Source: Nanobdellota archaeon
GTDB taxonomy: Archaea > Nanobdellota > Nanobdellia > Woesearchaeales > UBA9642
Reading direction: 5' to 3'
Length of the DNA stretch: 64,000 nucleotides
Assembly (NCBI GenBank): GCA_021813435.1
Contig: JAKAKR010000013.1
Span: 120,107 to 184,106, forward strand
The notes beneath the pieces were generated by a model that was not told the DNA's origin, did no database searches, and saw only the letters and a program-made list of their open reading frames with translations. Position 1 is the first letter of the stretch. Each line of letters begins with the position of its first letter. Made by a program: the position numbers and the translations under genes. Below, piece by piece: positions 19,818-42,890 of the stretch.

Positions 19818-22800
19818 ACAAGTCCGCGCGATCAATCTGTTTTATCATTGTCTACCTGGGAGCGTTTCCTGCATACTTACGCGTATTTCTCGAGGGATGC
19901 AAACGTAATAGCGATATTGACTGGATTATATTCCATGATCACGACCCGCATATCACTCCGCCTGCAAATGTCCGATTCGTCCCATTGGATCATACGGCAC
20001 TCATTAATCGCATCAAGGAAAAGACAGGTTTTGATGCAAAGATTTCTCATCCCTATAAATTAGTGGACTGCAAACCGCTCTATGGACATCTCTTCGAGGA
20101 GTATCTCACGGGCTACGCATTCTGGGGAATCACTGACCTTGACGTGATCTATGGATCAGTGCGGCGATTCATTACCGACGGTATCCTGCGGCAGTATGAC
20201 ATTATCACTGCATACGAAACATTTCTTGCAGGGCACTTCACACTGTTCCGGAACACCCCATTCATCACCCGATTGTATCTGAATAATCCTATGAGTAAGC
20301 GCGTTATAGAAAGTCCTGACCGATTTGTCTCAGTCTATGATGAGCGCAGTTTTGACTTGCTTGTCCGTAAAGAAGAGCAGAAAGGATTATTGCGCGTCTA
20401 TCGCAAGGACTTGGTGCTTGCCTGTACTGATGAGCGTTGGTATTTTGAATGGTACAAGAATACAGTGACCACGCACCAACAATATTACCCTGAACCGGAT
20501 GAAGTGCATCAACCGCTCGTTGATAAAACAGTGCGTGAGCGGGATTATGGGCCTGCAGACATTCGGGATGGCGGGGTGTTTCATCATAAGACAGGAAGAG
20601 AATATCTCTACATGCATCTTAAGGAATGGAAAGAAAATCTATCCCTGCATGCAATCCCCGGAATCGATTATGCGCAGTGTCATATTGATGATAAAGGGAT
20701 CTATGCATTGACAGGAAACAAGAGTATTGACCGGATATTGCCCCGCATCTATCGCATTGCAGCAGGGATGAATGTCCAGGGCAAAAGAGGACGCCGCAAT
20801 GCATTAACAATGCGCGGGACACCGATCAGGCGCAGGAAGAAAGCGATTGTGACGTTTGCTGACAGGAAATATATTGAACAGGCAAAACAGGTCTACACAA
20901 GTATTGCAACACATGCCGGATGGGATGGCGATTATATCCTGCTTACACCAGGTATCCCTGCGTATGCAGCAACATGGTTCGAAAAGCGGGGGGTTATTGT
21001 AAAGCAATGCTATGAATTCATGACAACTGAGGAAAAAGAAAAGACAGACACTGAAGCAAGACTTGATCCTGTTGCATTCATGAAGTGCTGCCTTTTTAGT
21101 CCATGGTTTACGCAATGGAAACATATCATCTACGTCGATGCAGACACGATTGTCAATGGCCCGCTGGATGAACTTGCAAGAGTCAAGGGACTATATGCAG
21201 TGCGGGATTATGTGGTTGATTATGCAACCCCGCTTCGCTATCAATTCATGAGTCGCAGGAACAAAACCGAGCATCAAAAGCATAAGCTCATCGCTGAACT
21301 CGAGCAGCGGATGGATTTTGACCAGCCCGCATTCAACAGCGGCGTCATGGCGTTCTCGACAGACATCATACGGCCCGATACATTTGCAACACTCATCGCG
21401 CTTGCACGAAAATATCTTGAGGTCGCCTTATACCATGACCAGGGGATACTCAATATCTACTTTTATGATCAATGGAAAGAACTACCGATCCCCTACAATT
21501 TCAATCCCCATGCAATCAGCGAGTACACTGACCTCACGCAGGAAAAGATCGATAAGATTAATGTCATCATCTATCATTTTCCCACACCGATGGATAAGCC
21601 CTGGAATCCGGGGCATCCGTATTATCAGCTCTGGACTGATCATTATAATAATCGTGAGTCCTTGGGATCATTCACCGCGCGCCCTTTGCGTAAACCGCGG
21701 GTGAATCACGCAATGATTGCTGCAGGGGATCGCGCGCTGCGCGCCGCATTGCGTTCCCATTATCATATCCTTGAAGGGATATTTGAAGAGGAGAATGATC
21801 ATGGAACGGCATTTCGCTGGATGACACGCCGGGCAAGAGTAATCTTGCCGGAGACTGCAGGATCCTCTATTATATTCAAACTCTTCAGTCCGTTTCCTGA
21901 CTATGAACAGATGCTGACCATCACTTCGCCGGATACCGAAGTGCATCATCTGAAATTGCGCAGCGGCTGGCATACGTATGCAGTGCCGCGAGAGAGAGGA
22001 AATACCTGTACACTCGAAGCTATGCAAACGCTTTCTGAAGATATTGATGATCGCATTCTTGCAGTGCGGATTGCATCAATAACCACCAGTGACACTGTTC
22101 CTGAAGGATCAATATCTGAGACAGGAGACAGCAGAGGCAGGATGATTACACATACGCGGGAAATACAATCACGGCTCGACCCGCTCAGGAGCGATGGGAT
22201 CTTTCCGATCATTGATGTCGAGGTCACGCTGAAATGTAACCAGTCATGCATGAACTGCATAAAATTCTGCAACAAACAGGATATGACCGGGATTGATTAT
22301 AGTGCATCAGCGCTGACTGAAAAGCAGATACAAAAATTTATTGATGATGTCAAACGCGTGTATCAACGCACTGGCAAAAAGGTTGCAGGAATCATATACC
22401 TTACGGGTGGCGAGCCGCTGCTCCATCCGAAGATCGTGGAATTTTTCTTTATGATCAAAAAGGAATTATGTGATACTGGTATATGCAACGGCGTATTCAT
22501 CAACTCCAATCTTACTGTACCGATTCCTGCAGTGCTCGAGCCATTCATTGTAAATTTTGTGCCGATCAGCGAGAAATCCCAAGCGCATCAGGCAGTCTTT
22601 GCGCATCCATTGGATTATGGACAGAAAGCTCCTACATATCAGACATGCACGCATTATCGCAAATGGACTGTCGTGTATCATTATGGCGGGTATAATGTCT
22701 GCTGCGCTGCTGACGGATATATTCGATTGTTTAATCGCACCGCATTGTTCTGTGACACGCTTCCGGATAATTTTGCAGGATTTCCTCTGGACAAGATGGA

Positions 22801-27495: not shown

Positions 27496-27506
27496 TAAGA
27501 ATAAGT

Positions 27507-29396
27507 ATGATGACAACACGAAAACAGGCGCTCACGCAAGACCGACCATACGCATTGTTCTGGTGCATTGTACTTCTTATTATCGTCATGATCACTGCCG
27601 GATGCGCGACAAAGGATACGCCCCCGCCACAAGAAGGATCCATCAATCTCTCCTGCCCGAACTGCAATATTATCCTACTTAATGTTGAGTTATTCCGCGC
27701 AGATTACATCGATCTCATCAGTACCGAGCATGGAAACAACACCCCGAATATCGACAGGTTCTTCAATAATTCAATCATATTCACTGATGCCTCAGCGCCT
27801 GCAGGATCGACCATCCAGAGCAATATTGCAGTCCTCACTGCCGAAAATCCTTTTATCATTAACCAGATACTTACCAAGAGATACCCGGGATATAATATTC
27901 TTCTCGACAAGAACGTTGATTATTTTACCGCATACCCGACGATCATACAATTGCTCAACAACGAAGGGTATTATACGGTTAATATCAATGAGGGCGGGCA
28001 TACCGGAAGATTCACATACATGGATAAGGGCGTTGACAATTATATTGAAGAGAGCGCATACGAGATGATGGGGATAAAATCTGCAAGAATGTTTCCGGCT
28101 ATTGCACGCACCATCACAGATCTCGAGAAGAATGAATCCCAAAAAAACAAGTTCTTCCTTCTTGCCCACAGCAACATCCTGCATAGTTCCCCGTATATTT
28201 ACCCCCTCAATCGATCACGGATCAATAGCTCGCTGATCAGGTATATCCCGATTTATGAAACAGGACAATACATGGTATTCGAGAATATCAGTACGGGAAA
28301 CCGCACCCCGGAATCATATGATAGCCCGGGATTCCACACCTGGTTTGAGGATTATGGATCAAAATTTCATGATATACCGCACTGGACCACTCAAAAGGAC
28401 AACACGCAGTATAAAGAAATAACGCAGCAACTGTATATACAGCAGGTGAAATACGTTGATGAAGAATTCGGAAAAATATTCGATCAGCTCGAAGAGAACA
28501 ATATGACTGACAATACCATCATCGTATTGTATGCAAACCATGGTGACGGACTCTTTGACAATGACGTGCCCGTGCATGACGTCGAATACCAATCATGCAT
28601 CCATGTCCCGATACTGATCAGGCATCCGCGAATCAATAAGACAATCGTTGTCACAACACCGGTCGCGCTCATTGACCTTATGCCTACAATCTATCATATG
28701 GTTTCTGAAAAAGAGCAGAATGGCACATTTGCAACCGCAGGACTTGCGGACGCCATGAGCGCAAAAAATTACACTCAAAAATATATCTTCGGTTTGAGCC
28801 AAAACCACGGCGATGAGTATGTACGAGATGGAGATATGAAATTACTCATACAAGCAAACAATGAAAAGACGCTCTATAATATCACCGCAGACCCGCATGA
28901 AGAGCACAATATTGCCGCGCAATATCCTGAGAAAGTAAAAGAATTAGACGATCTACTCATCACGCAGGAGATCGAATCAGAAAAAGAATACTATCGGCGG
29001 GAGGGACGCGATATAAACCTGACTGCAGCGCAGTATGAGATCATGAACGATGCATCATTTTATCACGGCTACGACAAGGAGCATAATGATGAGATATGGT
29101 ACCGATGGATAAGCGGGAATCATTCAGTCATAAGTCTTCCTGATAAGTATCATGGAAAGACTATCGAGATCCACGGAGGGTTTTTCTATTGCGAAAAGAA
29201 CCAGATGCGCCCGCAAATACGCATCAACGGGATCACAGTCACTGCATTCCCATTCAATACCACGCTCAATTCAACAAATATCACGTTCGAATCGCAAAAA
29301 GCCATGCGACCCATTGACTGCACAGTAAGCGCGAAAAGCGACGACACGAGATACCTTGCAGTATACATCGACAGCAACACACGAGTGATAAATTAA
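27507..29396 (+). CDS. lipobox-anchored sulfatase-like AP-superfamily enzyme with C-terminal FRW type-B module (paralogue 1)
   Basis: Lipobox ITAGC. ADYIDLISTEHGNNTPNIDRFF, APAGSTIQSNIAVLT, LYANHGDGL and DPHEEHNIA motifs. The last ~117 aa form the type-B module (WYRWISG...GGFFYC...RPIDC...TRYLAVYIDSNT). Confidence 0.75.
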   Translation: MMTTRKQALTQDRPYALFWCIVLLIIVMITAGCATKDTPPPQEGSINLSCPNCNIILLNVELFRADYIDLISTEHGNNTPNIDRFFNNSIIFTDASAPAGSTIQSNIAVLTAENPFIINQILTKRYPGYNILLDKNVDYFTAYPTIIQLLNNEGYYTVNINEGGHTGRFTYMDKGVDNYIEESAYEMMGIKSARMFPAIARTITDLEKNESQKNKFFLLAHSNILHSSPYIYPLNRSRINSSLIRYIPIYETGQYMVFENISTGNRTPESYDSPGFHTWFEDYGSKFHDIPHWTTQKDNTQYKEITQQLYIQQVKYVDEEFGKIFDQLEENNMTDNTIIVLYANHGDGLFDNDVPVHDVEYQSCIHVPILIRHPRINKTIVVTTPVALIDLMPTIYHMVSEKEQNGTFATAGLADAMSAKNYTQKYIFGLSQNHGDEYVRDGDMKLLIQANNEKTLYNITADPHEEHNIAAQYPEKVKELDDLLITQEIESEKEYYRREGRDINLTAAQYEIMNDASFYHGYDKEHNDEIWYRWISGNHSVISLPDKYHGKTIEIHGGFFYCEKNQMRPQIRINGITVTAFPFNTTLNSTNITFESQKAMRPIDCTVSAKSDDTRYLAVYIDSNTRVIN

Positions 29397-29417
29397 ATGT
29401 AGGCAAAGGCAAACAAC

Positions 29418-31331
29418 ATGAAAGCACGGAAAAAAACATCGCGGAGAAGATATCTTGTACTTGCATTGCTCATGAGCTGCATGTTCATCATTGCAGGATG
29501 CTCAGGGGATCATGTACGCACACAAAAGGAAGAGCTAATTGATCTCTCCTGCCCGAACTGCAATGTCATCTTTCTTAATATCGAACTATTACGCGCAGAC
29601 TACGTAGACCTCATCAGCACCGAGCACGGCAACAACACTCCAAATATCGACAAATTCTTCAATAATTCAATTATATTCACTGATGCATCAGCACCTGCAG
29701 GATCAACAATCCAGAGCAACATCGCAACACTTACTGACACCGATCCCTACATTATCGATCAGATCATCAAGCAAGGGTATAAACAACAAGAGGCATCCCC
29801 CCATGCTATTTCGCTTGGAAACACCTCATACCACAACAACCTCTTGAACCGGACCATTGCAGAGAGATTATCCGCCGAGGGGTATCACACTATCGATGTC
29901 AATGATGGCATACACGCAGGACGATATACTTCCATGGATGTAGGATTCAATGAATATAATGAAGAAACAGAATCAGGAACGCCAGAGGGCATGCGATTAA
30001 ATGCAGCACTGGTACGCACACAGGAGATAATCCAGAAAGAGAGCACGATACTTTACAAGAGCGATAACCTCCAACCCCTGAACAGAACCAATCACACTAC
30101 AAATAAATTCTTTCTTTTGCTCCACAGTAATCTCCTGCACGCGCTCCCCTATGCATATCCACTCAATCGATCAAGAATCATCGCACCGGAATTAGCATAT
30201 CTTAAATATGATGGCCTGCAATATAAATTATTTCTCGATTATCATCCCGAACAAGAACGCCCGAAGGACATGCAGGACAGTATGTTTAAGGAGTGGGCAT
30301 TACAGCACACCTGCAGTTATGGACAGACATGCTATACGAGTGAATCAGCATACCAACGCTACCATGCACTTGCGCATCAAGCCTATGCACAACAAGTACA
30401 ATATATTGATGAGGAGCTCGGAAAGATATTTGATGAGATTGAATCGCAGGGATTGATGAATAACACTATTATCGTCCTCTACTCCAATCATGGCGACGGA
30501 CTACTCGATAATAATGTTACGAATCATGATGTGTCCTACCAATCCTGCATCCACGTACCGCTCCTCATCAGACATCCCAAAGTCCACCGGCAATTACGGG
30601 TGGAGACGCCGGTTGCAATGCGTGATCTTGTGCCAACAATTACTGCGATGGTGCAAACGAAAAATACTACAACAGAAAGAAGTGTTGATCAGGGATTATT
30701 GCCCGCAATAACCAATCAGACGTATACACAGGAATATCTCTTCGGGCTCAGCAACGGGAAGTATGTCCGGCAGGGCGACATGAAATTGATCCTATTCTCG
30801 AGAAATAATCGTGAACTTTACAATATTACCGCAGACCCTCATGAAGAGCATAATATTGCAGCGCAGTATCCAGAAATCGTAAAAGAACTGAGCGATGCAT
30901 TATTTGCGCATGATATTGCAATGCAAGAAATACTCAAGAAAGAATTCAACATCAACGCGATATACCCCTACACCGTATATGACGAGGCAACATTCAAGAA
31001 TTTCTATGAGTGGGAATATGCCGCAGAAACACGTTTCCAATGGACAAGCGGTAAGCATGCTAGTATAGAGATCCCTGCAGTATACCTCGGAAGAACCATC
31101 GATATCCACGGAGGATTTTTCTATTGCGAGAATAACCAAACGCGCGCTCAAGCAAGGATCAATGGGGTCCCCATCACTGCATTCCCATTCAACATCACAC
31201 TAAACACGACAACACTGGATTTCGAATCCGATGATGCGATGCGACCGATAGATTGCGCGGCGAGTACGAAAAGCGACGACACGAGATACCTTGCAGTATA
31301 CATCGACAGCAATACACACATCATCAACTGA
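29418..31331 (+). CDS. lipobox-anchored sulfatase-like AP-superfamily enzyme with C-terminal FRW type-B module (paralogue 2)
   Basis: Lipobox IIAGC. It carries the same motif set as paralogue 1, and the two genes share long identical DNA stretches. Confidence 0.75.
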   Translation: MKARKKTSRRRYLVLALLMSCMFIIAGCSGDHVRTQKEELIDLSCPNCNVIFLNIELLRADYVDLISTEHGNNTPNIDKFFNNSIIFTDASAPAGSTIQSNIATLTDTDPYIIDQIIKQGYKQQEASPHAISLGNTSYHNNLLNRTIAERLSAEGYHTIDVNDGIHAGRYTSMDVGFNEYNEETESGTPEGMRLNAALVRTQEIIQKESTILYKSDNLQPLNRTNHTTNKFFLLLHSNLLHALPYAYPLNRSRIIAPELAYLKYDGLQYKLFLDYHPEQERPKDMQDSMFKEWALQHTCSYGQTCYTSESAYQRYHALAHQAYAQQVQYIDEELGKIFDEIESQGLMNNTIIVLYSNHGDGLLDNNVTNHDVSYQSCIHVPLLIRHPKVHRQLRVETPVAMRDLVPTITAMVQTKNTTTERSVDQGLLPAITNQTYTQEYLFGLSNGKYVRQGDMKLILFSRNNRELYNITADPHEEHNIAAQYPEIVKELSDALFAHDIAMQEILKKEFNINAIYPYTVYDEATFKNFYEWEYAAETRFQWTSGKHASIEIPAVYLGRTIDIHGGFFYCENNQTRAQARINGVPITAFPFNITLNTTTLDFESDDAMRPIDCAASTKSDDTRYLAVYIDSNTHIIN

Positions 31332-31437
31332 AAGAGGCATAACGTAACGCGATGACAGCAGAAGAGATTAAGCAATATTACTCAGGGGTAAACATTTATA
31401 AAGTCTGCCACAGCGTAGCAAAGTGAAGTGAATTATC

Positions 31438-32463
31438 ATGAAAATACTTATCATTAACCCGCTTGACGAGACGAATCTCGACGGGAAAAAAGGCGGCAAT
31501 CAACGTTTTGCAGAGGCACTTGCAAAAAATATCCGCAAGCACACCACCCACACGGTCGTTGAGAAATACACCCACTTTGATGACCATAAGCTGCGCAATA
31601 TCATCAATGCCTATATTGAGAATCGGAAGATCAATTGCCGCGGATATGACGTAGTCATTTCCATAAAATTCCCGAGTTATGTTATCCGGCACAAGAATCA
31701 TATATCACTCATCAATCATCGCATGCGGCGATACTATGATCTCTGGCCTGAATATAAAAAATCACTCCAGGGCGCCAAGCTTTGGGGGCAGATGCTAGCG
31801 CGCATGCTCTTTCATGTCGTCGATTCCTATTATCTCAAGAGGGTGAAAAGAATCTATGCGCAATCAGGAGTCATCAAGCATCGGCTTGCGCGTTCAGGCA
31901 TCCCATCACAAGTCCTCAATCCGCCAGAGACTATGCGTGGACTTACAAAGGGAAAATACCAGTACTTCCTGCTTCCCGGAAGACTCTACGATACAGGAAA
32001 GCGCGTCAGTCTTGCTATCGACGCGATGAAACAGGTCAAGGGCAATGTCAAACTGATCATTACTGGTGACGGGGGAGATGCTGCGGCGCTGCGTGAGCGT
32101 GCACGCAGTGATCCACGGATAATGTTTACAGGCTATATCAGCGAAAGAAAGCTTGCAGCACTCTACAAGGACGCACTTGCAGTCATCTTTATTCCTGTAG
32201 CAGAAGATTATGGCCTTGTCGCAGTCGAGGCGATGAAATGCGCAAAGCCTGTCATTACCTGCACGGATTCCGGCGGACCGACTGAACTTATCAAGAATCG
32301 TCGTAATGGTTTTATCTGCCCTCCACGTCCTGACCGCATCGCTTCCTGCATGACATACTTTGCAAAGAACAAAGCTGCAGCAAAGCGCATGGGCGCGCAG
32401 GCATACGCAGACACCCAATCCATCAACTGGAAGGATTATATCAGGAAAATCCTGCAACCATAA
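31438..32463 (+). CDS. GT4-family glycosyltransferase
   Basis: 341 aa. EDYGLVAVEAMKCAKPVI and TGGPTELI are typical of GT-B/GT4 enzymes. Confidence 0.8.
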   Translation: MKILIINPLDETNLDGKKGGNQRFAEALAKNIRKHTTHTVVEKYTHFDDHKLRNIINAYIENRKINCRGYDVVISIKFPSYVIRHKNHISLINHRMRRYYDLWPEYKKSLQGAKLWGQMLARMLFHVVDSYYLKRVKRIYAQSGVIKHRLARSGIPSQVLNPPETMRGLTKGKYQYFLLPGRLYDTGKRVSLAIDAMKQVKGNVKLIITGDGGDAAALRERARSDPRIMFTGYISERKLAALYKDALAVIFIPVAEDYGLVAVEAMKCAKPVITCTDSGGPTELIKNRRNGFICPPRPDRIASCMTYFAKNKAAAKRMGAQAYADTQSINWKDYIRKILQP

Positions 32464-32474
32464 CTTTTTTAACA

Positions 32475-33227
32475 ATGATCGATGTGAACCTTATCAAGGA
32501 ACTGGTGAAGACTGATTTCAAACTGAAATATTACGGATCATTCCTCGGATTTTTCTGGTCGCTGCTCAAGCCCTTTCTCATGCTCGGAATCCTCTACTAT
32601 GTATTCACCTATTTCATCAAGGTCCAGATAGAGAATTTTGCACTCTTCCTGCTCCTCGGCATCATCATCTGGAACTATTTTGTCGATACCACCTATGATA
32701 GCATGAATGCGATCACCGGCAAGAGATCAATACTGAGCAAGACAAAACTATCGCCTGCAATCATTGTCGTCAGCGCATCAATCCAACCTGAAATCACACT
32801 TTTCCTGAACCTTGTCGTCTTTTTCCTCATCTTTTTTTTCAGCGGGCATGCTATCGGAATGGAATTCTACTATTTCATCATCCTCATGGCACTCCTGATG
32901 CTCACGGCAACCGCGATATCGCTTGTCCTTATCTTTTTCCATGTCCGATTCATGGATTTCCGTCATATCTGGGATGTGTTCATCCAGATACTCTTCTGGG
33001 CGACGCCAATCGTCTACAATCTCGATTATGTCTCCCTCAATTTCCAGCGATGGTTCCTGCTCAACCCCATTGCACGCATAATCGTCGATGCGCGGGCAGT
33101 CATCCTCTATAATACGCTTCCAGAACCAAAGCAGATGATGATCACGCTCATTATTGTATTCATCATCAGTGTCGGATGCTATTATATCTACCGCATGACC
33201 CGCAACCGGATGGCTGATCTCCTATGA
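32475..33227 (+). CDS. ABC-2 type polysaccharide/teichoic-acid exporter permease (Wzm/TagG-like)
   Basis: 250 aa, 6 TM. The N-terminal DFKLKYYGSFLGFFWSLLKP motif is typical of ABC-2 permeases. It overlaps the ATPase gene by 4 nt. Confidence 0.8.
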   Translation: MIDVNLIKELVKTDFKLKYYGSFLGFFWSLLKPFLMLGILYYVFTYFIKVQIENFALFLLLGIIIWNYFVDTTYDSMNAITGKRSILSKTKLSPAIIVVSASIQPEITLFLNLVVFFLIFFFSGHAIGMEFYYFIILMALLMLTATAISLVLIFFHVRFMDFRHIWDVFIQILFWATPIVYNLDYVSLNFQRWFLLNPIARIIVDARAVILYNTLPEPKQMMITLIIVFIISVGCYYIYRMTRNRMADLL

Positions 33228-33991
33228 TCACTGCAAAAAAGATATCCAAAGAATATTACATCCCGCATATCAGAAAGACAACGCTATTTGAGAAACTGCT
33301 CAGTCTTGTGCGGGAACATCGCAAGATGGAAAAGTTCTATGCATTAAAGGATATTTCGTTCGAGGTGCAGAAAGGAGAGATCTTTGGCATCATCGGAAAG
33401 AACGGGAGCGGCAAGACAACACTGCTCAAGATCATCGGAGGGATTATCCCGCCAACGACAGGAACAGTCACTGCGACCGGAAAGGTTGTCCCATTTCTCG
33501 ACCTTGGCATCGGATTCCACCCAGAACTCACGGCGCGGGAGAACATCTACCTGTATGGCGCAATCATGGGCATGAGCCGTGAACAGATTACGCGGGAATT
33601 CAAGGAGATCCTGCGATTTGCAGGGGTCGAACGTTTCGCAGACATGAAACTCAAGCATTTCTCTGCAGGAATGGCCATGCGACTCGCATTCTCGACCATG
33701 ATCCGCACTGCATTCGACGCCATTATCCTTGACGAGGTCTTTGCGGTCGGCGATGGCGAATTCCAGAAGAAGTGTATGATAGAATTGCTTAAATTCAAAA
33801 AGCAGGGCAAGACCATCATCATCACGAGCCATGCCATGGATCCCATCATGGACTTTTGCGACCGCGCAATGCTTCTCGAGAATGGGACTGTCAAGATCAT
33901 CGGAAAGCCGCGGGATGTAGTCATGGCATACGACCCTGAGAGTGTCACGAAGAGAAGAAGATTGCGAAAATCCGCAGATAGTATCATATGA
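33224..33991 (+). CDS. ABC exporter ATP-binding protein (Wzt/TagH-like, no C-terminal carbohydrate-binding extension)
   Basis: Walker A GKNGSGKTTLLK, signature FSAGMAMRLAF and Walker B AIILDE. It is only 255 aa long. Confidence 0.85.
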   Translation: MITAKKISKEYYIPHIRKTTLFEKLLSLVREHRKMEKFYALKDISFEVQKGEIFGIIGKNGSGKTTLLKIIGGIIPPTTGTVTATGKVVPFLDLGIGFHPELTARENIYLYGAIMGMSREQITREFKEILRFAGVERFADMKLKHFSAGMAMRLAFSTMIRTAFDAIILDEVFAVGDGEFQKKCMIELLKFKKQGKTIIITSHAMDPIMDFCDRAMLLENGTVKIIGKPRDVVMAYDPESVTKRRRLRKSADSII

Positions 33992-34111
33992 AAAAAGTAA
34001 TGCATACCATGCATGCACTGACAAAGCAGCAAGAGAGCGCGCCAGCATCACCAACGATCTCGATCACCCTAATACTTTGCGCAGGACTAATTATACTGCT
34101 GCTTATCACTT

Positions 34112-34372
34112 CTACAGATTGCAGCCGCAGAGCAAGCGCAGTGCAAACCCGCGTCCCCGAGTTTCGAGCCGCAAGTAGCGGACTGTACGCAGTGCCTGCG
34201 CCAGACGCCGGCCAATCCGTGCAGTGGCGTCGGTGCGGATATTATCTGCGATGAGAATCGTGTACGTGTAGGGGAATCGCGATGATTTGAGAAAATCGAT
34301 GAGTGTGCGCACACTTGCAGCTAGCTGCTTCTCTTCATTGTAGACCGGTAGGACGATGAGGACACACGCCAA
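34112..34372 (-). pseudogene. GT2 glycosyltransferase N-terminal fragment
   Basis: VLIVLPVYNEEKQL...ILIADNIRTDAT...RGRGFAL, then a premature stop. A full GT2 would continue for about 150 more residues. TTG start. Confidence 0.55.
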
Positions 34373-34548
34373 ATGATATCTATAGTTTTTTATAGTTTTT
34401 TGAAAAATAGATCAGGGATCATTCCCAAAAAAACTCATTACAGAAAAATATTGTTTAAAAATGTTGCGACAAGATTGACGTGACGCAGTATCTGTGATCA
34501 GTATCTGGATAGATAGCATTTACCAAGCGTTCACCAAGATGAGTATAA

Positions 34549-36303
34549 TCAGTGCACTAATTTTCGGAATAGGCCGTGTACCTTGCGCGGCATAACCTCA
34601 TGAATCGTCTTGACCTCGGCTTCAGGATGCTCAGTGAGATATTTTTGCACGATCGGACAGGATTTGCTCTCCAGACAGTACTTGCTGAACCCTCCCTGCG
34701 CAAGGTGCGCGCGGATTTCCTGCATCATATCACAATTCCATAATTCTTTATATTTATCCATCGGACCGAGCGGCCGGTAACTGTAACAGCAGAATTTCAC
34801 TCCTGCACGCAAGATGTAACCTGATTCCCAGGGTTCGCGACAAATGGGCGGCGCAGAAACAAGTTTTGTGTCGCGGCGAAAAATTTTTGATGCAGATGCC
34901 GCAAGTTTTGCAGTCTTTGCAGAAAACGTAGACCTTTGGGGAGAAGGCGCTGCATGCGCAGAAGCTGATGAGGCAACAGGAGTGGCAGAATCGCCGGAAG
35001 AATCACGAAGAGAGTCATGAGGAGAATCACCGGAAGAACCAGAAGAAGAATCGCAAGCAGAATCGCATTGTGCAAAGCATGTTCGCACTGCAGACTCATC
35101 CGGCGCCGCCGTATCCTGTTCTGAAGCGAGCAGTTCCTCCTCAATACTGTTCTGGAAGTTGAGTTGGTCAACAAGGCGCACACCATACTTTTTTGCGAGT
35201 TTTCGCGCTTTGATAGATATCGGGATGCGCTCTTCACGACTGAATTTTTCCTTATGATAATCAAAGACATGACCTCCCCGTGGCTCGAGTGGCCCGGGAG
35301 TGAATGAATCATATAATGGTCGCAGTATCATGACATCGACTTTGAGATCGGCGCATAACTTGATAAAATCCTCGAGTTCATGGACATTGAGCCGCATGGG
35401 CATGAATACCAGATAGACTGCAGGCGCGCTTTGCAAGCCCCGCTCCTGAATCAATGCACGGATATTGTCAATAATGCGCGTGAAGGCATTGGATCGTAGT
35501 TTTGCGTAGGTTTCAGGGGTTGCAGCATCGATTGAGATATAGAGATTGATGTGTTTCCCGATGAGGAGCGCGCGATTTTTCGCATTGAGAAGAATTCCAT
35601 TCGTCGACATCTCAAGCATTTTCCCGTTCGTTTCAAACGCGTCAAGTATTTCTGCGATCTGCGGTGAGAGGAATGGTTCGCCAATCGAACAATTCGTCAA
35701 TTGCGCGCAGTGCGTAAAAAATGATCCGTATTCTTTTAGGGTATCTAGAGTGAATGGTGCATGGGTGAATGCCCCCTCCTTTCGCTTTGCATCATCAAAC
35801 TCGCAATAGACGCAGGAAGGCTTGATATTGCAGGTCCCGTTGATGTCAATCCCGAGACGCACCGGATAGGATTGCAGTACTATTTTTCCCTGCATGAATT
35901 CTTCGGTATTCAGTAGGGTATTCTGTGTGATGATGCTTTTCGGAGTTTCGGGAGTATCACTGAACTCCACGTTCCCTAATCGTACCGTGAGCGTTCGTGG
36001 ATCCAGCGGCGCTTCGATCTTTTTGTTTATCTTGAGAACAAGACGTTTGCCCGGAATTCGCGGAATAGTGTAAGTGTTCCAGAGAAAGGCTAATTGCAGT
36101 CGTTTCACGAGTTTTCCATCGATAAAACATTCGACCACTTGTGATCGGTCAAAAAAGTCGCTGTACAGGTCAAGGTGGATATATGCGCCAGGAGCATCCA
36201 GAAGCAGGATGCTGGCTTCAAAAGTGCACCATCGAAATTTGATAGTCCCGTCAGTTTCAGGATTATGGAATCCATACTCATAACATTCTTCTGCAAGAGA
36301 CAT
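34549..36303 (-). CDS. FRW type-A module + radical SAM + SPASM-domain protein with a Ser/Asp-rich insert
   Basis: aa 1-115: FRW module. CNIKPSCVYC cluster motif (CX5CX2C). CSIGEPFL. aa ~393-478: low-complexity region. C-terminal SPASM-like PICREPW..GVKFCCYSY..WNCD..KYCLESKSCPI. Confidence 0.75.
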   Translation of the reverse strand: MSLAEECYEYGFHNPETDGTIKFRWCTFEASILLLDAPGAYIHLDLYSDFFDRSQVVECFIDGKLVKRLQLAFLWNTYTIPRIPGKRLVLKINKKIEAPLDPRTLTVRLGNVEFSDTPETPKSIITQNTLLNTEEFMQGKIVLQSYPVRLGIDINGTCNIKPSCVYCEFDDAKRKEGAFTHAPFTLDTLKEYGSFFTHCAQLTNCSIGEPFLSPQIAEILDAFETNGKMLEMSTNGILLNAKNRALLIGKHINLYISIDAATPETYAKLRSNAFTRIIDNIRALIQERGLQSAPAVYLVFMPMRLNVHELEDFIKLCADLKVDVMILRPLYDSFTPGPLEPRGGHVFDYHKEKFSREERIPISIKARKLAKKYGVRLVDQLNFQNSIEEELLASEQDTAAPDESAVRTCFAQCDSACDSSSGSSGDSPHDSLRDSSGDSATPVASSASAHAAPSPQRSTFSAKTAKLAASASKIFRRDTKLVSAPPICREPWESGYILRAGVKFCCYSYRPLGPMDKYKELWNCDMMQEIRAHLAQGGFSKYCLESKSCPIVQKYLTEHPEAEVKTIHEVMPRKVHGLFRKLVH

Positions 36304-36323
36304 GTATCTGCAATCAGTGGAGT

Positions 36324-36333
36324 GTTTTTATAG
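36324..36333 (-). promoter_or_regulatory. TATA-like box for the 34549-36303 gene
   Basis: The minus strand reads ctataaaaac, 21 nt upstream of the start at 36303. Confidence 0.45.
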
Positions 36334-36350
36334 TTTATGGTTCGTATCAA

Positions 36351-36409
36351 AAAATATACGTCCAGATAATATACGTTCGGATAATATACGCTTGGATAAT
36401 ACGCGCTGG
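36351..36409. repeat. four tandem ~15-nt units (aaaatatacgtccag / ataatatacgttcgg / ataatatacgcttgg / ataatacgcgctgg)
   Basis: Read directly. The units lie immediately distal to the TATA-like box of the minus-strand radical SAM gene. Confidence 0.75.
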
Positions 36410-36498
36410 AGTGAGAGTGGCATGGCGTAAAAGAAATATTTTGAACAACATGCTAATAGGAGCAGAATATTTATATAGTGCAGCGGCACATCGGAGCG

Positions 36499-36657
36499 AT
36501 GGATACATTCAAGGAATGCTGGAATGGCGAGGAGATCCAAGAGATTCGAAGGAATTTAGCGGAGGGAAGGTTCAGCGAGTATTGTCTTAAAAGCAAATCT
36601 TACCGCTTATCCGAAAACATTTTTCAGAATTTGATGAAGACAGAATCGAAGGAATGA
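36499..36657 (+). pseudogene. 52-codon ORF homologous to the extreme C-terminus of a SPASM radical SAM protein (remnant or micro-protein)
   Basis: MDTFKECWNGEEIQEIRRNLAEGRFSEYCLKSKSYRLSENIF... aligns with KYKELWNCDMMQEIRAHLAQGGFSKYCLESKSCPIVQKYL of the 34549 ORF. The box atatttatata lies 22 nt upstream. Confidence 0.45.
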
Positions 36658-36672
36658 GATCGTCATAAAGAG

Positions 36673-37239
36673 ATGACACGAAGATCATCCATAAAGGCAA
36701 AAAAGATGAAATCCAAATATCGCATCAACAGAACGATGTTACTGTTGCTAATGAGCGTTGCAATCATCAGCATACTTATCAATATTGCGCTCATACTCCT
36801 TTTGATGAATTCTGAAAGGTTGCTACATCCGACAACTACTGTGGATTCGGACATGTCGACAGGGTGGATATCAACGCATCCGATCATTGATGATATGACA
36901 TTCCAAAATTTCTTCGAACAAGAGACCGACCAAAAAATACGATTCCGATGGAGTAGTGATAATTATTCTTCGATTACACTGCCTAAGAAATATGTTGGAA
37001 GGACACTTGAGATTGACGGGTTTTTTTTCGTTTGCCAAAAGAATAATACTCACCCCCATATTGTCGTAAATGGCGCCGCCATTGATGCATTCCCGTTTAA
37101 AATCCGGCTTAATTCAACAACGCTCACATTCCGCTCAAACGACGGGATGCGACCAGTGGATTGTTATACGGAAAACAGTACCTATGATAGACGGACTCTT
37201 ACATTCATGATCACTAATGAGACAAGAATTGTGGGTTAA
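36673..37239 (+). CDS. membrane-anchored stand-alone FRW type-B module protein
   Basis: 188 aa with one N-terminal TM. The remainder aligns with the C-terminal modules of the sulfatase-like paralogues (IRFRWSS...DGFFFVC...MRPVDC...RRTLTFMITNET). Confidence 0.6.
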   Translation: MTRRSSIKAKKMKSKYRINRTMLLLLMSVAIISILINIALILLLMNSERLLHPTTTVDSDMSTGWISTHPIIDDMTFQNFFEQETDQKIRFRWSSDNYSSITLPKKYVGRTLEIDGFFFVCQKNNTHPHIVVNGAAIDAFPFKIRLNSTTLTFRSNDGMRPVDCYTENSTYDRRTLTFMITNETRIVG

Positions 37240-37336
37240 GATTAGAGCACAACACATCGTAAGGGAAAAAGTTATGAGGTTGTTGATTTCCGATAATAAG
37301 AGTGCAAGACAGAAAACGGATATACCGTATCTTAAC

Positions 37337-38827
37337 ATGGATAAGAATAAAAAAAAGATAGCACGAACATTCGTTCTCATAGGCAGTGTCATGATTGGCA
37401 TCCTGCTCATCATTTCCGGATGCACAAATAATGCACAAGAGAAAAAATCAAACGATCCTTTCTGCAAGGATTGTAATGTCATATTCATCAATATTGAACT
37501 CCTCCGCGCAGATTACGTAGACCTCATCAGTACCGAACACGGCAACAACACCCCAAACATCGACAGATTCTTCAAGAACGGCATCATATTCGAGGATGTC
37601 ACCGCTTCAGCAGGAGAGACAGGGATCAGTAATATCGCCACACTCACCAATACAGATTCTTACTTCGTAAACCAGATTGTCAGCATATTCTATAAATCAC
37701 TCAATCAACTCGAACAAGGCAATAAGACTGGAGATCATTCATTGGTGAGTAAATTCACAAAATACTTGACGATTGCGCAGATTCTTCAAGCTAATGGATA
37801 CCGGACCATCTGTATAAATGATGGTGCATTTTCCGGGAAGTACACGTTTATGGATGCGGGATGCGAAAAATATTATGATGTGACAAACGACCCCTCATAC
37901 AATGCAGGGATAACTACCACAGTAAAGAATATCATGTTGCTTGAGAATCTCAAAGGGAAAGAGCAGAATAAATTCTTTTTATTATATCATAGCGATGCGC
38001 TTCACGCATTGCCCTATAAGTATCCTCTTGCACGCGAACATGATACCAATCCATTGATAGAATACATCCATCCTGAGAATAGCGATTACTATGAAACGCG
38101 GTTCCATATCGCTAAGAATGGGACAATCCTTAATAAGGGAGAACTTCGTGCAGAGTTATTCAATACTGATTGGATGGATAATACCACATTCAACACCTAC
38201 CATCAACTTGCGCACACCGTATATGCACAACAAGTAAGATATGTCGATACGGAGTTAGGGAAGATCTTTTCAGAACTAGAACAGAGCGGAATGCTCAAAA
38301 ATTCCATTGTTGTCCTCTACGCAAATCATGGAGACGGATTGTATGATAATAATATACCTAATCATGGAGTCACATATCAATCATGTGTCCATGTGCCGCT
38401 ACTCATCAGACTTCCAAGTAGTACCAGGCAGGAACGTATCACTACCCCGGTCGCATTAATTGACCTCGCGCCGACCATCTATCAGATGACAAGAGTTGAA
38501 AAAAGGAATATATCCGATCTTTCGCCAGACGCGGCCACTGCACGCGCAGGATTACTTCCGGCGATACTGAACGGCACTTATGATCGTGAGTATATCTTTG
38601 GTATGAATAATGGAGAATTTGTGCGATACCAGGATATGAAACTTCACCTCCTCACGGATAATCAGAAAGAATTGTATAATATCACCAGTGACCCGCACGA
38701 AGAGCATAACATCGCAGCGCAATACCCTGAAATCGTTAAAGCATTAAATGATATCATCAGTGCGCATGATATACAAGTGCAGAAAGAGTTTAATGATCGA
38801 TTTGAGAACAGGACTATAGGCAGATAA
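37337..38827 (+). CDS. lipobox-anchored sulfatase-like AP-superfamily enzyme (paralogue 3, no type-B module)
   Basis: Lipobox IISGC. ADYVDLISTEHGNNTPNIDRFF, SAGETGISNIATLT, LYANHGDGL and DPHEEHNIA motifs. It ends shortly after the catalytic domain. Confidence 0.75.
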   Translation: MDKNKKKIARTFVLIGSVMIGILLIISGCTNNAQEKKSNDPFCKDCNVIFINIELLRADYVDLISTEHGNNTPNIDRFFKNGIIFEDVTASAGETGISNIATLTNTDSYFVNQIVSIFYKSLNQLEQGNKTGDHSLVSKFTKYLTIAQILQANGYRTICINDGAFSGKYTFMDAGCEKYYDVTNDPSYNAGITTTVKNIMLLENLKGKEQNKFFLLYHSDALHALPYKYPLAREHDTNPLIEYIHPENSDYYETRFHIAKNGTILNKGELRAELFNTDWMDNTTFNTYHQLAHTVYAQQVRYVDTELGKIFSELEQSGMLKNSIVVLYANHGDGLYDNNIPNHGVTYQSCVHVPLLIRLPSSTRQERITTPVALIDLAPTIYQMTRVEKRNISDLSPDAATARAGLLPAILNGTYDREYIFGMNNGEFVRYQDMKLHLLTDNQKELYNITSDPHEEHNIAAQYPEIVKALNDIISAHDIQVQKEFNDRFENRTIGR

Positions 38828-38851
38828 CCAAAGATAAATGCGATGTACGGA

Positions 38852-40753
38852 TCAGGTTACCTGTAGAGGAATAGTGAGTGGGGAACTGCCCTTATCTTCA
38901 AACCAAAATTTATTTTCAACAACTAAATCAAATTTAAACAGATACATTCCGGGAGATAGTGTCTTATTGAAAATAAACTCTGTATGGAAGAGTGATCCGG
39001 GGGTAATCCCCCCTTCGGGGATTGCTTGTCGTAATTCAAGAACAGGAGTGATTGGATCCTGCGCAGCGTAGACCCTACATCCGACACGCAGGGAATGATC
39101 AGACATCCATGTCTCTTTTCCAGTATTTTTTATCTTTAGCATGAAAGAATTCTTATGAGCAATGAGTTTTTTCTGGATGATTCGCGCAGAGTAAGGGATT
39201 TTTTGTCGGTGATTGGGTGCGGGTATCTTCAAAGATAACACCTTGGTGATTGGATGAGCAAGTAAAGAGATATATCTCTTGAAGAAAGTGGATGTTTTTG
39301 GGAGCATATGCAATTTTGATTGGGGAAATGAGGGAGTGCCACCCCATGCATGCACCATTAGGGATATTCCTGATTGATCGAGATGTTTTTGCATGCGACT
39401 GACAAGTGTCAAACGCCATTCAAGAGTGCTTTTCTTATCAGCAGATTCCCAAATGTCAGGTTTTCTAAATAACGATTCCTGATTCAAGCGATAACACTCG
39501 AGATGTTCGTGGATTCCAGAACCTGGGCAGATTACGACTTCGGCAACATGTCCGACCCCTGAAATGTACGCCTTGTGTTTTGTGATGAATGAGATCGATT
39601 CCTGAAATGTGGCTTCAGTCTCTCCAGGATACCCTACCATGAGATATATCATCACCGGCAAACCTGCAGTATGTGCATCTTTCAGGTTTTTTCCAATGGT
39701 CTCGATACGTACCCCTTTTTTCATCGCATTAAGGATAGACTGAGAAAAACTTTCAGTTCCGAATGCGATAAGTGTAAACCCCGCTTTTTTTAATAGGGTA
39801 AATGTTTTTTGCGTCAATAATGGCGAATGGCGGAATTGTGCGAAGATGAATTCCACATCAAGTTTTGCTGCGATGATGAGTTCGCACAATCGTTCAATCT
39901 GGCTTATGCTTGCATTCGCGCAGAGATCGCTTACTTGGAATTTGCGGTAACCTTCTTGTATCCGCAGTTGGATTTCTGCAAGGATCTGTTCAGGATTTCG
40001 TATCCTCACCCGTTCACCCATTTCATCGCTGTCGACACAATATTCACAGACACCGGGGCATCCACGATTAAATTTTATCCTCACAAAATCTCCGAGGTAC
40101 GCAGAACGGTCATAATCAGAGAAATAAGGAAAGGGTATGGTATCGATATCGCTGATAGGCGGGCGATCACCGCAATCCACAAACGTATCGTCGATCTTGA
40201 GGGATGTTCCTAAACAGTGCCGTGGAACCGTTCCATTTTTGAGAGTATCAACGACTTCACGGAGTGTCTCTTCGCCTTCATTCTTCACAATGCAATCGAC
40301 GAATGGGAATTCATGTTTGTGCAGCGCAGTCACTTGATAACGCCATTTTTTCCGAAAGCAGAAAGTCCTCCCGCCGTAGATGATATATGTCGATGGTGAG
40401 CGTGATTTTATTTTTTGAGCAACATAATCAGTGTATCGCCGATTATAATTCGTCACTGAAAATCCTAAGGCATCCGCATGTTCTGCCAATAAGAGGTCAA
40501 TGAACTGATCCAATAATCCTTGAACATCCGGTGAGATTTCTGCCAATGTATCGCTTGATGACATCCGTGCAAAATATTCGTTTTCGCTCTTATTGATTAC
40601 TGTCGATTCGAAGAATAATTTTTCCAGGTCTACAATGCGCACAAGGATATCAGGATCGCGTGCAACATATCCTTTCAGATATGCAAGACCGAGCGGAGGG
40701 GCGTGGACATGATTACCGAAGGGAAGCATCGCCAACACAAGTTTAAAAGACAT
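38852..40753 (-). CDS. cobalamin-binding-type (class B-like) radical SAM protein with C-terminal Ig-like beta-sandwich
   Basis: N-terminal Rossmann-like LAMLPFG..PPLGLAYLKGY, RGCPGVCEYC (CX3CX2C), and a C-terminal ~115-aa domain (KIKNTGKETW...PGMYLFKFDLVVENKFWFED). Confidence 0.7.
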   Translation of the reverse strand: MSFKLVLAMLPFGNHVHAPPLGLAYLKGYVARDPDILVRIVDLEKLFFESTVINKSENEYFARMSSSDTLAEISPDVQGLLDQFIDLLLAEHADALGFSVTNYNRRYTDYVAQKIKSRSPSTYIIYGGRTFCFRKKWRYQVTALHKHEFPFVDCIVKNEGEETLREVVDTLKNGTVPRHCLGTSLKIDDTFVDCGDRPPISDIDTIPFPYFSDYDRSAYLGDFVRIKFNRGCPGVCEYCVDSDEMGERVRIRNPEQILAEIQLRIQEGYRKFQVSDLCANASISQIERLCELIIAAKLDVEFIFAQFRHSPLLTQKTFTLLKKAGFTLIAFGTESFSQSILNAMKKGVRIETIGKNLKDAHTAGLPVMIYLMVGYPGETEATFQESISFITKHKAYISGVGHVAEVVICPGSGIHEHLECYRLNQESLFRKPDIWESADKKSTLEWRLTLVSRMQKHLDQSGISLMVHAWGGTPSFPQSKLHMLPKTSTFFKRYISLLAHPITKVLSLKIPAPNHRQKIPYSARIIQKKLIAHKNSFMLKIKNTGKETWMSDHSLRVGCRVYAAQDPITPVLELRQAIPEGGITPGSLFHTEFIFNKTLSPGMYLFKFDLVVENKFWFEDKGSSPLTIPLQVT

Positions 40754-40776
40754 AGATGATAGACAATAAGAATATC

Positions 40777-40784
40777 TTTATAAA
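40777..40784 (-). promoter_or_regulatory. TATA-like box for the 38852-40753 gene
   Basis: tttataaa lies 24 nt upstream of the start at 40753. Confidence 0.45.
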
Positions 40785-40970
40785 TATTACTGATACCGCA
40801 ACAATGCCGCATCATACGATAACATTTAAATAATCGCCGATAAAGAGAAAGATAAGAGAAGAATAAGAGGACAACCGACAAGCATAAAGAATGGCGATAA
40901 TAAAGATATGCACAGACATCAAATTCATATCAGATGAAAGATCAGTATCAAATAAAAAAGAAAGTAGAAA

Positions 40971-42890
40971 ATGATTGATCGAAAAAATATCATCATACTA
41001 ACAATCATCGTAGTGCTCTATACCGCTTTTTTATTCTATGTAAGCTACCAATCACCGTATTATCTTGTCCCCGACGATGCAAACCACGTGCAGGAATCAT
41101 ATCTGCTCTCTCAGGGAAATATCCAATATGCGGTAAGAAATTGGACGAGACCGCTCTATGCCATTCCCTGCGCAACATTGATAACACTATTCGGATATAG
41201 CCTGCAATCCTGCAGGCTAATCGAAATTTTCTCGACTATTGGAACAATCATCCTACTCTATCTCATCATCTATCATTTTACAAAGTCAAAAATGTTTGCG
41301 ATGAGTGGGGTAGTATTGTTCGGTATGATCCCTATGGTCATTGTTCTTGCTACTTCAAATTTTGCTGAACCCCTATTCGCATTCATCTTGCTCCTCGGGA
41401 TCTATTTTCTGATACGAGAGAAATGGGCATTATCTGCAATAACGATCGGCCTTCTCCCATTAGTACGTACAGAAGGATTTCTGATGATTGCCGCATGGAT
41501 AGTATATTATATGTCTTTACGCCTTTTTGTGTATGAAGAAAAGACCCGCAGCGGCGTAAAGGTAAAGATAAAAGGCATTCATCTCAAAGAGACGGCGAAC
41601 CATCCGCACATCGCTTTCATCATAGCACTCATCTTGTTACCGACAATTATCTGGTGCATCGCAAGTCTATTCATCCTCGGGAATATATTTAACCCATTCC
41701 AGACATATTCACTTCAAGTATTCAAAGAGACAGAAATATTTATCCCCTTATGGTTCGTCCCCGTACGCATAGCATATTGCATAGGGATTCTTACTTCAGC
41801 ATTATTCATCTTAGCGATGATACGTCTACGCAAGATCCCCGACACTGTACGATTTGCCGCGTATATTGCATTAGGGTTTATCATCATTCTATCAGTATCA
41901 GCAGAATTCCGATTTCTTGGGCAGGGGATGGCAGAACACGCGATGATCATCGCCCCGCTCCTCATACTTACCGGCATCCTATCCATCACTACACTCCCAT
42001 TCAAAAAAAGAACACTCATCATACTCTGCATAATAATCATTCTCGCGCAAGGGATAGAACTATACTCATGGAGTATTGGACATAATACTGATATCACTAA
42101 ATGGCCCGGAATCCTGAATGGACCGACCGGACATAATCGGGAAATCATCAGAGGAAACAGTTCTCCAGAATGGTTTATCGGAGAATCATATAACAAACTC
42201 ACACTCTTCTATGACAAGACCATTCCACAGAATGAAACAATCCAACTTTGTTATATCACGATCATGACCAATTATGCAAATCAATATCCGAAGTATCGAA
42301 TTATCCACACAATAAACGATGTTGAGACACGCAGATTATGCCCCATGTGCGTCCCGAGTTGCGATTTTACAAACAGCGAGTGGATTGTCAGGCATAAGGG
42401 GATACCCCTTGACCTGTCTGACGCCATAAAGGCACGATATGCCATAGTATACGATTCTGAGATGACACAAGTGCTTAAAAAAAATGATGAAGAATTCGAG
42501 CCGGTATTCAATAATCTCACATTCATCAATTTCAGTCAAAAGGGAACTTACGTTAATTTCAGGAATGAAACCATCAGTTTCCGGCAATCGAACAGCACAT
42601 CGTTTGCGATAACCGTTCCCCGATCATTCGTCGGCAAAACAATGGTAATCAGCGGATCTCCATTCTACTGTTTTAGAAATAAGACATATGCAGATATTCG
42701 AGTGAATGGCAATCCGATCAAAGTTTTCCCGTATGAGATTTATCTTAATTCAACAACCGTCATGTTCTCGTCTCCTAATCCTATGATGCCCGCATTTTGC
42801 GAACCGATCACAGAAAATCCATCCAAACAAAACACCGATACCCGAGAGATTGCATTTACCATCAATAATAACACCGTCCTTCTCAAATAG
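40971..42890 (+). CDS. polytopic GT-C-like (ArnT/PMT-like) membrane protein with C-terminal FRW type-B-like module
   Basis: About 11 TM in the first 380 aa, with an acidic first-loop motif YYLVPDDANH. The C-terminal ~128 aa (ISFRQSN...GSPFYCF...IRVNGNPIKVFPYEIYLNSTT...REIAFTINNNT) align with the type-B modules. Confidence 0.6.
   Translation: MIDRKNIIILTIIVVLYTAFLFYVSYQSPYYLVPDDANHVQESYLLSQGNIQYAVRNWTRPLYAIPCATLITLFGYSLQSCRLIEIFSTIGTIILLYLIIYHFTKSKMFAMSGVVLFGMIPMVIVLATSNFAEPLFAFILLLGIYFLIREKWALSAITIGLLPLVRTEGFLMIAAWIVYYMSLRLFVYEEKTRSGVKVKIKGIHLKETANHPHIAFIIALILLPTIIWCIASLFILGNIFNPFQTYSLQVFKETEIFIPLWFVPVRIAYCIGILTSALFILAMIRLRKIPDTVRFAAYIALGFIIILSVSAEFRFLGQGMAEHAMIIAPLLILTGILSITTLPFKKRTLIILCIIIILAQGIELYSWSIGHNTDITKWPGILNGPTGHNREIIRGNSSPEWFIGESYNKLTLFYDKTIPQNETIQLCYITIMTNYANQYPKYRIIHTINDVETRRLCPMCVPSCDFTNSEWIVRHKGIPLDLSDAIKARYAIVYDSEMTQVLKKNDEEFEPVFNNLTFINFSQKGTYVNFRNETISFRQSNSTSFAITVPRSFVGKTMVISGSPFYCFRNKTYADIRVNGNPIKVFPYEIYLNSTTVMFSSPNPMMPAFCEPITENPSKQNTDTREIAFTINNNTVLLK

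Follow-up and report, generated by a model that had tools for sequence, protein, structure and literature searches.

Four proteins encoded in a 64,000-nucleotide stretch of an archaeal metagenome-assembled genome (MAG) from a mine-drainage metagenome (Nanobdellota archaeon, contig JAKAKR010000013.1, positions 120,107 to 184,106 of the forward strand; the whole stretch is referred to here as the window) carry copies of one domain, which we name module B and which is a real, cleanly delimited and lineage-restricted domain family. Two of its carriers, S1 and S2, are paralogous lipoproteins with a sulfatase-family catalytic domain, another is a small protein anchored in the membrane by a single transmembrane (TM) helix, and the last is polytopic, with some 11 predicted TM helices; all are encoded in one glycan locus (Table 1). 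Judging from the resemblance of the predicted fold to carbohydrate-binding modules (CBMs) and from the genomic context, we put at about even the chances that module B is a lineage-restricted CBM-like, non-catalytic targeting module that binds a glycan.

Four copies of one external module

A preliminary description of the window had noted four homologous segments in these proteins, and we find all of them in the translations, in the alignment and by BLASTP. In the four translated open reading frames (ORFs) they form one colinear domain of about 110-115 residues with 26 invariant columns, among which are two cysteines (C71 and C114 in the numbering of copy M1); further invariant motifs are G-x-T, N-G, F-P, L-N-x-T, M-x-P and D-x-R. 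Pairwise BLASTP, run with SEG masking and composition-based statistics, gave E = 7e-54 and 57% identity between M1 and M2, E of about 1e-36 and 42-43% identity between M3 and either of these, and E = 1e-18 to 1e-24 and 34-38% identity between M4 and M1-M3. Searching the six-frame translation of the window with a hidden Markov model (HMM) built from the four copies, with all filters off, we recovered exactly these four and no fifth, the next best score being E = 0.03. The consensus pattern first written for the module fits M1 and M2 best and holds less well for M3 and M4, which deviate from it at several positions: M4 has FRQ for FRW, and in place of GGFFYC there is GFFFVC in M3 and GSPFYC in M4.

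The segments are rich in Asn, Ser and Thr, which could be taken to mean that their similarity arose by chance or reflects the composition of Asn/Thr-rich external sequence. We assign this explanation a negligible probability. The similarity, which the preliminary description had allowed might be lost upon masking of Asn/Thr, was kept, with E-values from 1e-18 to 7e-54 persisting under SEG masking and composition-based statistics, so that module B is not an artefact of Asn/Thr composition. Furthermore, the copies align colinearly, the invariant columns include Cys, Trp/Phe, Pro and Gly, and the remaining N/T-rich external domains of the window give no match to the module B HMM. A chance or compositional artefact is thus ruled out by the masked BLASTP E-values, the invariant columns and the specificity of the HMM.

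The boundaries of the module are confirmed by one paralogue and one orthologue that are both without it. The third sulfatase-family paralogue, S3, which shares 45% identity with S1, stops precisely at the linker that leads into the module in its two relatives S1 and S2. Likewise, our searches gave a single homologue of the 11-TM carrier, the protein P0009 encoded in a Ca. Woesearchaeota MAG (49% identity), and this aligns to residues 1-522 of that carrier and then terminates where module B would begin. Module B is thereby a genuine, discrete unit common to external proteins of one glycan locus, in support of the earlier description of a module shared by four extracytoplasmic proteins. Directly upstream of S3, on the same strand and, depending on the start codon, overlapping it or within ~100 nt of it, lies the stand-alone module gene, and the two genes are a split version of the S1/S2 architecture. 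In addition, module and enzyme have diverged in step (57% identity for M1-M2 and 52% for S1-S2; 42% for M1-M3 and 45% for S1-S3), indicating that the module is under similar constraint to its enzyme.

As had been proposed, the module lies outside the cell in all four carriers, with lipobox, TM anchor and positive-inside topology in agreement. By inspection, the N-termini of S1 and S2 consist of an n-region, an h-region and a lipobox (ITAGC in S1, IIAGC in S2), and the ORF at 36673-37239 starts with a K/R-rich N-terminus, followed by a single TM helix and then by the module. The topology of the 11-TM carrier was assigned by hand from hydropathy and the positive-inside rule, which puts the K/R-rich loops 188-213, 285-294 and 343-348 inside and the last 270 residues, including the module, outside. 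The richness of the module in N-x-S/T sequons was borne out as well: the copies of module B have 3-7 predicted N-glycosylation sequons each, or 2.5-5.5 per 100 residues, versus 0.2-0.8 in the cytoplasmic enzymes of the locus and 0 in the copies of a second module, type A, that is treated below. The other external domains are also sequon-rich (1.4-2.8 per 100 residues), and therefore sequons mark an external location in this archaeon and not the module specifically.

Table 1. Copies of module B, their carriers, type A modules and the exporter, in window coordinates (aa, amino acids; K/R, Lys or Arg; FGly, formylglycine; SAM, S-adenosylmethionine).
Feature	Position	Strand	Description	Evidence or remark
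Module B copy M1	29043..29393	+	C-terminus of sulfatase-family paralogue S1	Alignment, BLASTP, HMM envelope aa 500-640 of ORF 27474-29396
Module B copy M2	30975..31328	+	C-terminus of sulfatase-family paralogue S2	Alignment, BLASTP, HMM
Module B copy M3	36880..37236	+	Ectodomain of small membrane-anchored protein, ORF 36673-37239	Alignment, BLASTP, HMM; best-recognised copy for the type A HMM
Module B copy M4	42504..42887	+	C-terminus of 11-TM protein, putatively GT-C-like	Alignment, BLASTP, HMM; orthologue P0009 stops at the M4 boundary
Carrier S1	27507..29396	+	Lipobox lipoprotein with AlkP-superfamily / sulfatase-family (PF00884) catalytic domain	Thr in place of the FGly residue
Carrier S2	29418..31331	+	Paralogue of S1, same architecture	52% identity
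S3	37217..38827	+	Third sulfatase-family paralogue, lipobox, module-free	Directly downstream of the stand-alone module gene
11-TM carrier	40971..42890	+	Polytopic membrane protein, ~11 TM helices, N-in/C-out	DD motif in first external loop; external C-terminal domain followed by module B
TM anchor of stand-alone module protein	36733..36807	+	N-in TM helix	Hydropathy; 7 K/R among the 16 residues preceding the helix
Type A module	35929..36303	-	N-terminus of radical-SAM/SPASM protein, cytoplasmic	
Type A module	21725..22132	+	Inside DUF6625-GT8-(A)-radical-SAM multidomain protein	
Type A module, third copy	15533..15961	-	Stand-alone 143-aa ORF	Type A HMM, E = 4e-28
Wzm/Wzt-type ABC-2 exporter	32475..33991	+	Wzt homologue at 33224-33991	Wzt homologue of 255 aa

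The enzymes that carry module B

S1, S2 and S3 had been labelled sulfatase-like, and the part of this label that refers to the domain stands: all three match PF00884 in Pfam (E = 2e-20 to 2e-32), and their best PDB sequence matches are S1 sulfatase structures. The catalytic signature of sulfatases is another matter. In the alignment to the arylsulfatase 3ed4, none of the three paralogues has the C/S-x-P-x-R formylglycine motif; opposite SSPSR stands (G)STIQSN, with Thr at the nucleophile position and both Pro and Arg gone, and A-[PS]-A-G-[SE]-T is common to all three. Within the AlkP superfamily, phospho-transferases and phosphodiesterases, LtaS and EptA among them, typically use Thr as their nucleophile. 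The Thr nucleophile and the lack of the formylglycine motif point to a role of this kind, and on sequence grounds S1-S3 are probably phospho-head-group transferases or hydrolases and less likely sulfatases. The three proteins also share a C-x-x-C motif (CPNCN or CKDCN) just after the lipobox.

The 11-TM carrier has no match in Pfam and none among PDB sequences, whether searched as a single sequence or as a profile, and hhalign detected no similarity between it and the DUF6541 protein of the locus. There is a sub-threshold NCBIfam match to the ‘AZOBR_p60025 family cell surface glycopolymer formation protein’ (E = 3.8e-4). The DD motif (residues 35-36, in external loop 1) is kept in P0009. The earlier naming of this protein as GT-C-like therefore finds no support at the level of sequence and is carried by topology and the DD motif.

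Predicted fold, relatives and possible role

Structure prediction makes it probable that module B has a fold of the galactose-binding-domain-like jelly-roll class, of the CBM6/35/29 kind. The model that we obtained with AlphaFold2 from the four-sequence alignment had the CBM35 structure 2w47_A as its top Foldseek match (E = 7e-3, probability 0.98, TM-score 0.37); further CBM35 entries, CBM29, BcsB and CDTb came next. The model of the type A module was built from its three window copies, in an alignment separate from that of type B, and has eight long strands (pLDDT 78, pTM 0.74); its Foldseek matches were the VesC C-terminal domain, the binding domains of iota toxin Ib and CDTb, CBM29, CBM6 (TM-score 0.55), CBM36 and BcsB. 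CBM29, BcsB and the binary-toxin binding domains were matched by both models, with CBM35 in addition for B, and CBM6 and CBM36 for A. Regarding the two invariant cysteines of module B, one is positioned in the loop after the T-I-E-I-x-G-x-x-F strand and the other in the loop before the final D-x-R-x-L-A-V strand. By a strand-parity count, the two loops would share one end of the predicted sandwich, an arrangement that would be compatible with a disulfide between them.

At the sequence level module B is an orphan, with nothing convincing outside this genome in the databases searched. With the module B alignment as query, a word-indexed search across 5.8 billion protein clusters gave only the window's own protein, and HMMER, run as a profile search on 1.84 billion representatives clustered at 50% identity, gave two proteins of the window and one weak match, the protein P0008. 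No relatives of the module turned up when the GTDB species-representative genomes and the JGI metagenome contigs were scanned. Scanning metagenomes with the three sulfatase paralogues, we found 80 loci with distant relatives (20-31% identity), none of which has a type A or type B module. Neither module has a meaningful match in Pfam, NCBIfam or PDB sequences.

The locus contains a further module, type A, in cytoplasmic proteins, and a distant relation between the two types had been suspected. The hhalign comparison of B with A gave P = 0.0018-0.0033, with a score of 23.8 versus a shuffle null of 12.0 +/- 2.5, a value reached in 1/300 column-shuffled type A alignments. Using an HMM built from four type A sequences, we found that its best non-self match in the window was the M3 ORF (E = 2.9e-4, 16.5 bits), with M1 weaker; the best score of the same HMM on 6382 unrelated control segments was 9.3 bits. 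In a relaxed alignment the two modules are colinear over 111 columns, from F-x-x-E...FRW...LP at the start to D-x-R-x-L-[AT]-V at the end, and FRW and D-x-R, as read from the sequences, are 80 residues apart in B and 78 apart in A. They are of the same length, and their predicted strands correspond one to one and follow a like order. On the other hand, hhalign gives the relation a probability of only 10-15%, and the two modules align with confidence only over the N-terminal 27 columns. We therefore regard homology of types A and B as likely, though not proven. The differences between them are clear: type A is cytoplasmic, fused to radical-SAM enzymes and without sequons or the conserved Cys pair, and it also occurs in a Woesearchaeota locus where type B is absent. 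A word-indexed search of the 5.8 billion clusters with a two-sequence type A alignment found nothing, nor did the radical-SAM protein carrying type A have a match in the GTDB species-representative genomes. The stand-alone type A ORF at 15533-15961 sits between a carbamoyltransferase and a GT4 gene.

On our preferred reading, module B has been shuffled among the membrane-tethered tailoring enzymes of a single surface-glycan locus that depends on an ABC transporter. If it does bind a glycan, the ligand would be the exported glycan or its lipid-linked intermediate, and binding would keep four proteins, namely the three sulfatase-family enzymes and the GT-C-like 11-TM protein, together on one polymer outside the membrane. 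S1 and S2 would do so through their fused module, and S3 with the help, in trans, of the TM-anchored copy whose gene directly precedes its own. Inside the cell, type A would have the corresponding role, acting before export on the radical-SAM enzymes of the same locus, and type B might have been derived from it and adapted to the outside by gaining the two invariant cysteines and several N-glycosylation sequons. Taken further, types A and B could be the cytoplasmic and extracytoplasmic descendants of one undescribed glycan-recognition (CBM-like) family, that is, one ‘reader’ fold that follows the polymer across the membrane. Such a fold would recruit radical-SAM tailoring enzymes inside and, after Wzm/Wzt export, AlkP-type head-group transferases and the GT-C-like enzyme outside. 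This wider proposal is a tentative one, and we think it somewhat doubtful.

Several observations, in addition to the low hhalign probability for A and B, weigh against the reading of module B as a CBM-like targeting module. No sequence similarity of module B to any CBM or lectin family was detected in Pfam (carriers at E <= 0.01, isolated modules at E <= 10), and the clear match to a known family of this kind for which the preliminary description had proposed to look was likewise lacking in NCBIfam and PDB sequences. The type B model, although all-beta, is of low confidence (pLDDT 64, pTM 0.60), and Foldseek found no PDB match for it at E <= 1e-3, with a TM-score of about 0.37. All known members of the family belong to one lineage, which leaves a binding site without comparative support. 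Beta-sandwich domains, moreover, also serve as protein-protein interaction modules or as spacers.

The spacer reading is the one to which P0008 leads. This protein, which is made of five PF09136 Glucodextran_B repeats, is the only non-self match in the 1.84 billion representatives (E = 1.4e-7, summed over four repeats), and hhalign aligned module B to its repeats over 77 columns with P = 7e-4 and a probability of 26%; both values also count against a CBM-like role. Module B would then be a divergent Glucodextranase-domain-B or cadherin-like Ig-like spacer that stabilises the catalytic domains or holds them away from the membrane, and its likeness to type A would come down to a shared strand motif. 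We hold this to be improbable. The P0008 score is a sum over repeats rich in N, T and S, in which composition and repetition have likely inflated it, PF09136 itself matches no module even at E <= 10, and the similarity omits the N-terminal strands; for these reasons we weighed it below the link to type A. Indeed, module B has ~30 extra N-terminal residues, with the F-x-x-E...FRW strands that are common to type A. In a mere spacer, 26 invariant columns would be unexpected among copies that are only 30-57% identical, and the stand-alone TM-anchored copy has nothing to space. Compared with module B, the PF09136 domain is shorter (~85 residues) and has neither the N-terminal FRW strands nor the Cys pair; the weak profile similarity between the two is colinear over ~77 columns (T-I-x-I-x-G ... 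V-N-G-x-x-V ... T-R-x-I).

Protein-protein docking is a stronger competitor, albeit one that we consider rather unlikely. Here, module B would join the four external proteins to one another or dock them on the surface layer (S-layer) or on the outer face of the exporter, with no carbohydrate bound. The same module is present on four functionally linked proteins, and the TM-anchored copy could recruit S3 in trans; the fold matches include receptor-binding and oligomerising beta-sandwiches (iota toxin Ib, CDTb, the BcsB crown); and the cytoplasmic radical-SAM enzymes that bear type A are equally open to complex assembly. However, true CBMs predominate among the best fold neighbours of either module, there is no coiled coil or other sign of oligomerisation, and the predicted heavy N-glycosylation (3-7 sequons) would tend to mask protein interfaces.

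Regarding a CBM-like role, the families closest in predicted fold are CBM6, CBM35, CBM36 and CBM29, which are of like size (~110-130 residues), are all-beta and provide the best PDB fold neighbours of type B and some of the best of type A. These CBMs too are accessory modules appended to carbohydrate-active enzymes. By contrast, module B has no Pfam CBM sequence match, the structural match of type B is weak, and its carriers appear to be biosynthetic or tailoring enzymes on an archaeal membrane instead of secreted glycoside hydrolases.

Among membrane glycosyltransferases (GTs), the mycobacterial GT-C enzyme AftD has three periplasmic beta-sandwich CBMs (bioRxiv 10.1101/2019.12.22.885152), and EmbC is described as having a C-terminal lectin-like CBM (Alderwick 2011, as cited in PMC11127046). 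Extracytoplasmic modules of the AftD/EmbC type have been proposed or shown to hold the complex glycan acceptor (bioRxiv 10.1101/2019.12.22.885152; PMC11127046). The 11-TM carrier shares this layout of a polytopic protein with extracytoplasmic beta-sandwich modules, as predicted for module B, and also resembles the GT136 enzyme ORF12, in which a beta-rich domain follows TM11 (PMC11127046). It differs in being archaeal and not actinobacterial and in that its sequence matches neither a GT-C family nor a solved structure, and module B is found on AlkP-type enzymes and as a stand-alone protein as well.

A further comparison is offered by the exporter component Wzt, whose C-terminal CBM reads the O-antigen terminus and couples its modification to the next step (PMC9445017; PMC11127046). 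Both this CBM and, by prediction, module B are beta-sandwich modules in a glycan pathway of the Wzm/Wzt type. However, no sequence similarity between them was detected, and the modules are distributed differently: the Wzt encoded in the window is CBM-free, consisting of the ABC_tran domain with no C-terminal CBM, whereas type B lies outside the membrane and type A on radical-SAM enzymes, with none on the transporter.

The glycan locus and its implications

Besides the module carriers and the Wzm/Wzt exporter, there are genes in the locus for several glycosyltransferases of families GT2, GT4 and GT8, for a carbamoyltransferase and a methyltransferase, for two GDSL enzymes and for many enzymes of the B12-radical-SAM and SPASM types. 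The lipobox proteins of the locus number five. Two of these lie upstream of S1 (24753-27495), a 694-residue Phosphodiest/NPP-like enzyme of the AlkP superfamily and a 224-residue protein that has no family match.

Orthologues of several window genes are found in the Woesearchaeota locus mentioned above, including the radical-SAM protein carrying type A (63-74% identity), a B12-radical-SAM enzyme (49%), a GT4 glycosyltransferase (75%) and the DUF6541 membrane protein (55%); this locus has no sulfatase-family genes and no module B. In the window, genes between 36600 and 52400 have a GC content of 0.39-0.43 versus 0.44-0.49 in the upstream part of the locus, and several genes in and around this region have 49-75% identical orthologues in the Woesearchaeota locus, whose GC content is 0.36. 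The low-GC stretch together with these orthologues suggests shared ancestry or transfer between DPANN-like archaea. Adjoining the shared glycan genes on the Woesearchaeota contig (17690-21665) is a giant (>5000 residues) surface protein with Laminin_G_3 repeats.

Elsewhere in the window we noted two tRNA genes at 12510-12623 and 12639-12746 (minus strand), of 114 and 108 nt and presumably intron-containing; both are detected by Rfam and were missed by ARAGORN in bacterial mode, consistent with an archaeal genome. The ORF at 56394-58256 (plus strand) encodes a secreted protein of 620 residues, extremely rich in Cys, Gly, Thr and Asn, with many C-x-x-C-like spacings and no family match. Next to it, at 58262-59869 (minus strand), lies an Asn/Thr/Ile-rich ORF of 535 residues that has an HEAEH (HExxH-like) motif close to the C-terminus; the base composition of this stretch is unusual (GC 0.39, AT skew -0.46, GC skew +0.25). 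On the minus strand near the start of the window, the 529-residue ORF at 4815-6404 joins an MtrA-like region at its N-terminus (~27-150) to a methanogen-type thymidylate synthase (ThyA) domain (190-428), the Hel308-type helicase ORF at 10811-12496 matches only positions 223-719 of the family model and may be N-terminally truncated or split, and a Cas4-like protein (1184-2050) adjoins a TYW1 gene. TYW1, Hel308, the methanogen-type ThyA and the two tRNAs are the grounds on which the genome is assigned to the archaea.

Module B would be best filed as an accessory beta-sandwich module on glycan-processing enzymes, a type already known elsewhere; comparable layouts have been described in bacterial O-antigen and mycobacterial arabinan machinery. 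We know of no archaeal example of such a layout, and a literature search specific to archaea gave nothing relevant. On a practical matter, the significance of the family is limited by its restriction to a single lineage and by the putative nature of its function. The locus nevertheless represents a natural experiment in domain shuffling, with fused, split and module-free versions of an enzyme and with modules inside and outside the cell that are likely related. If the module binds the glycan of the locus, it would constitute a new CBM family, and its small soluble ectodomain would provide a handle on the surface polymer of an uncultured, DPANN-related archaeon from mine drainage. Should types A and B indeed be one ‘reader’ fold, this would mean not only a new CBM family but also a new principle by which archaea related to DPANN organise the tailoring of their surface glycans.

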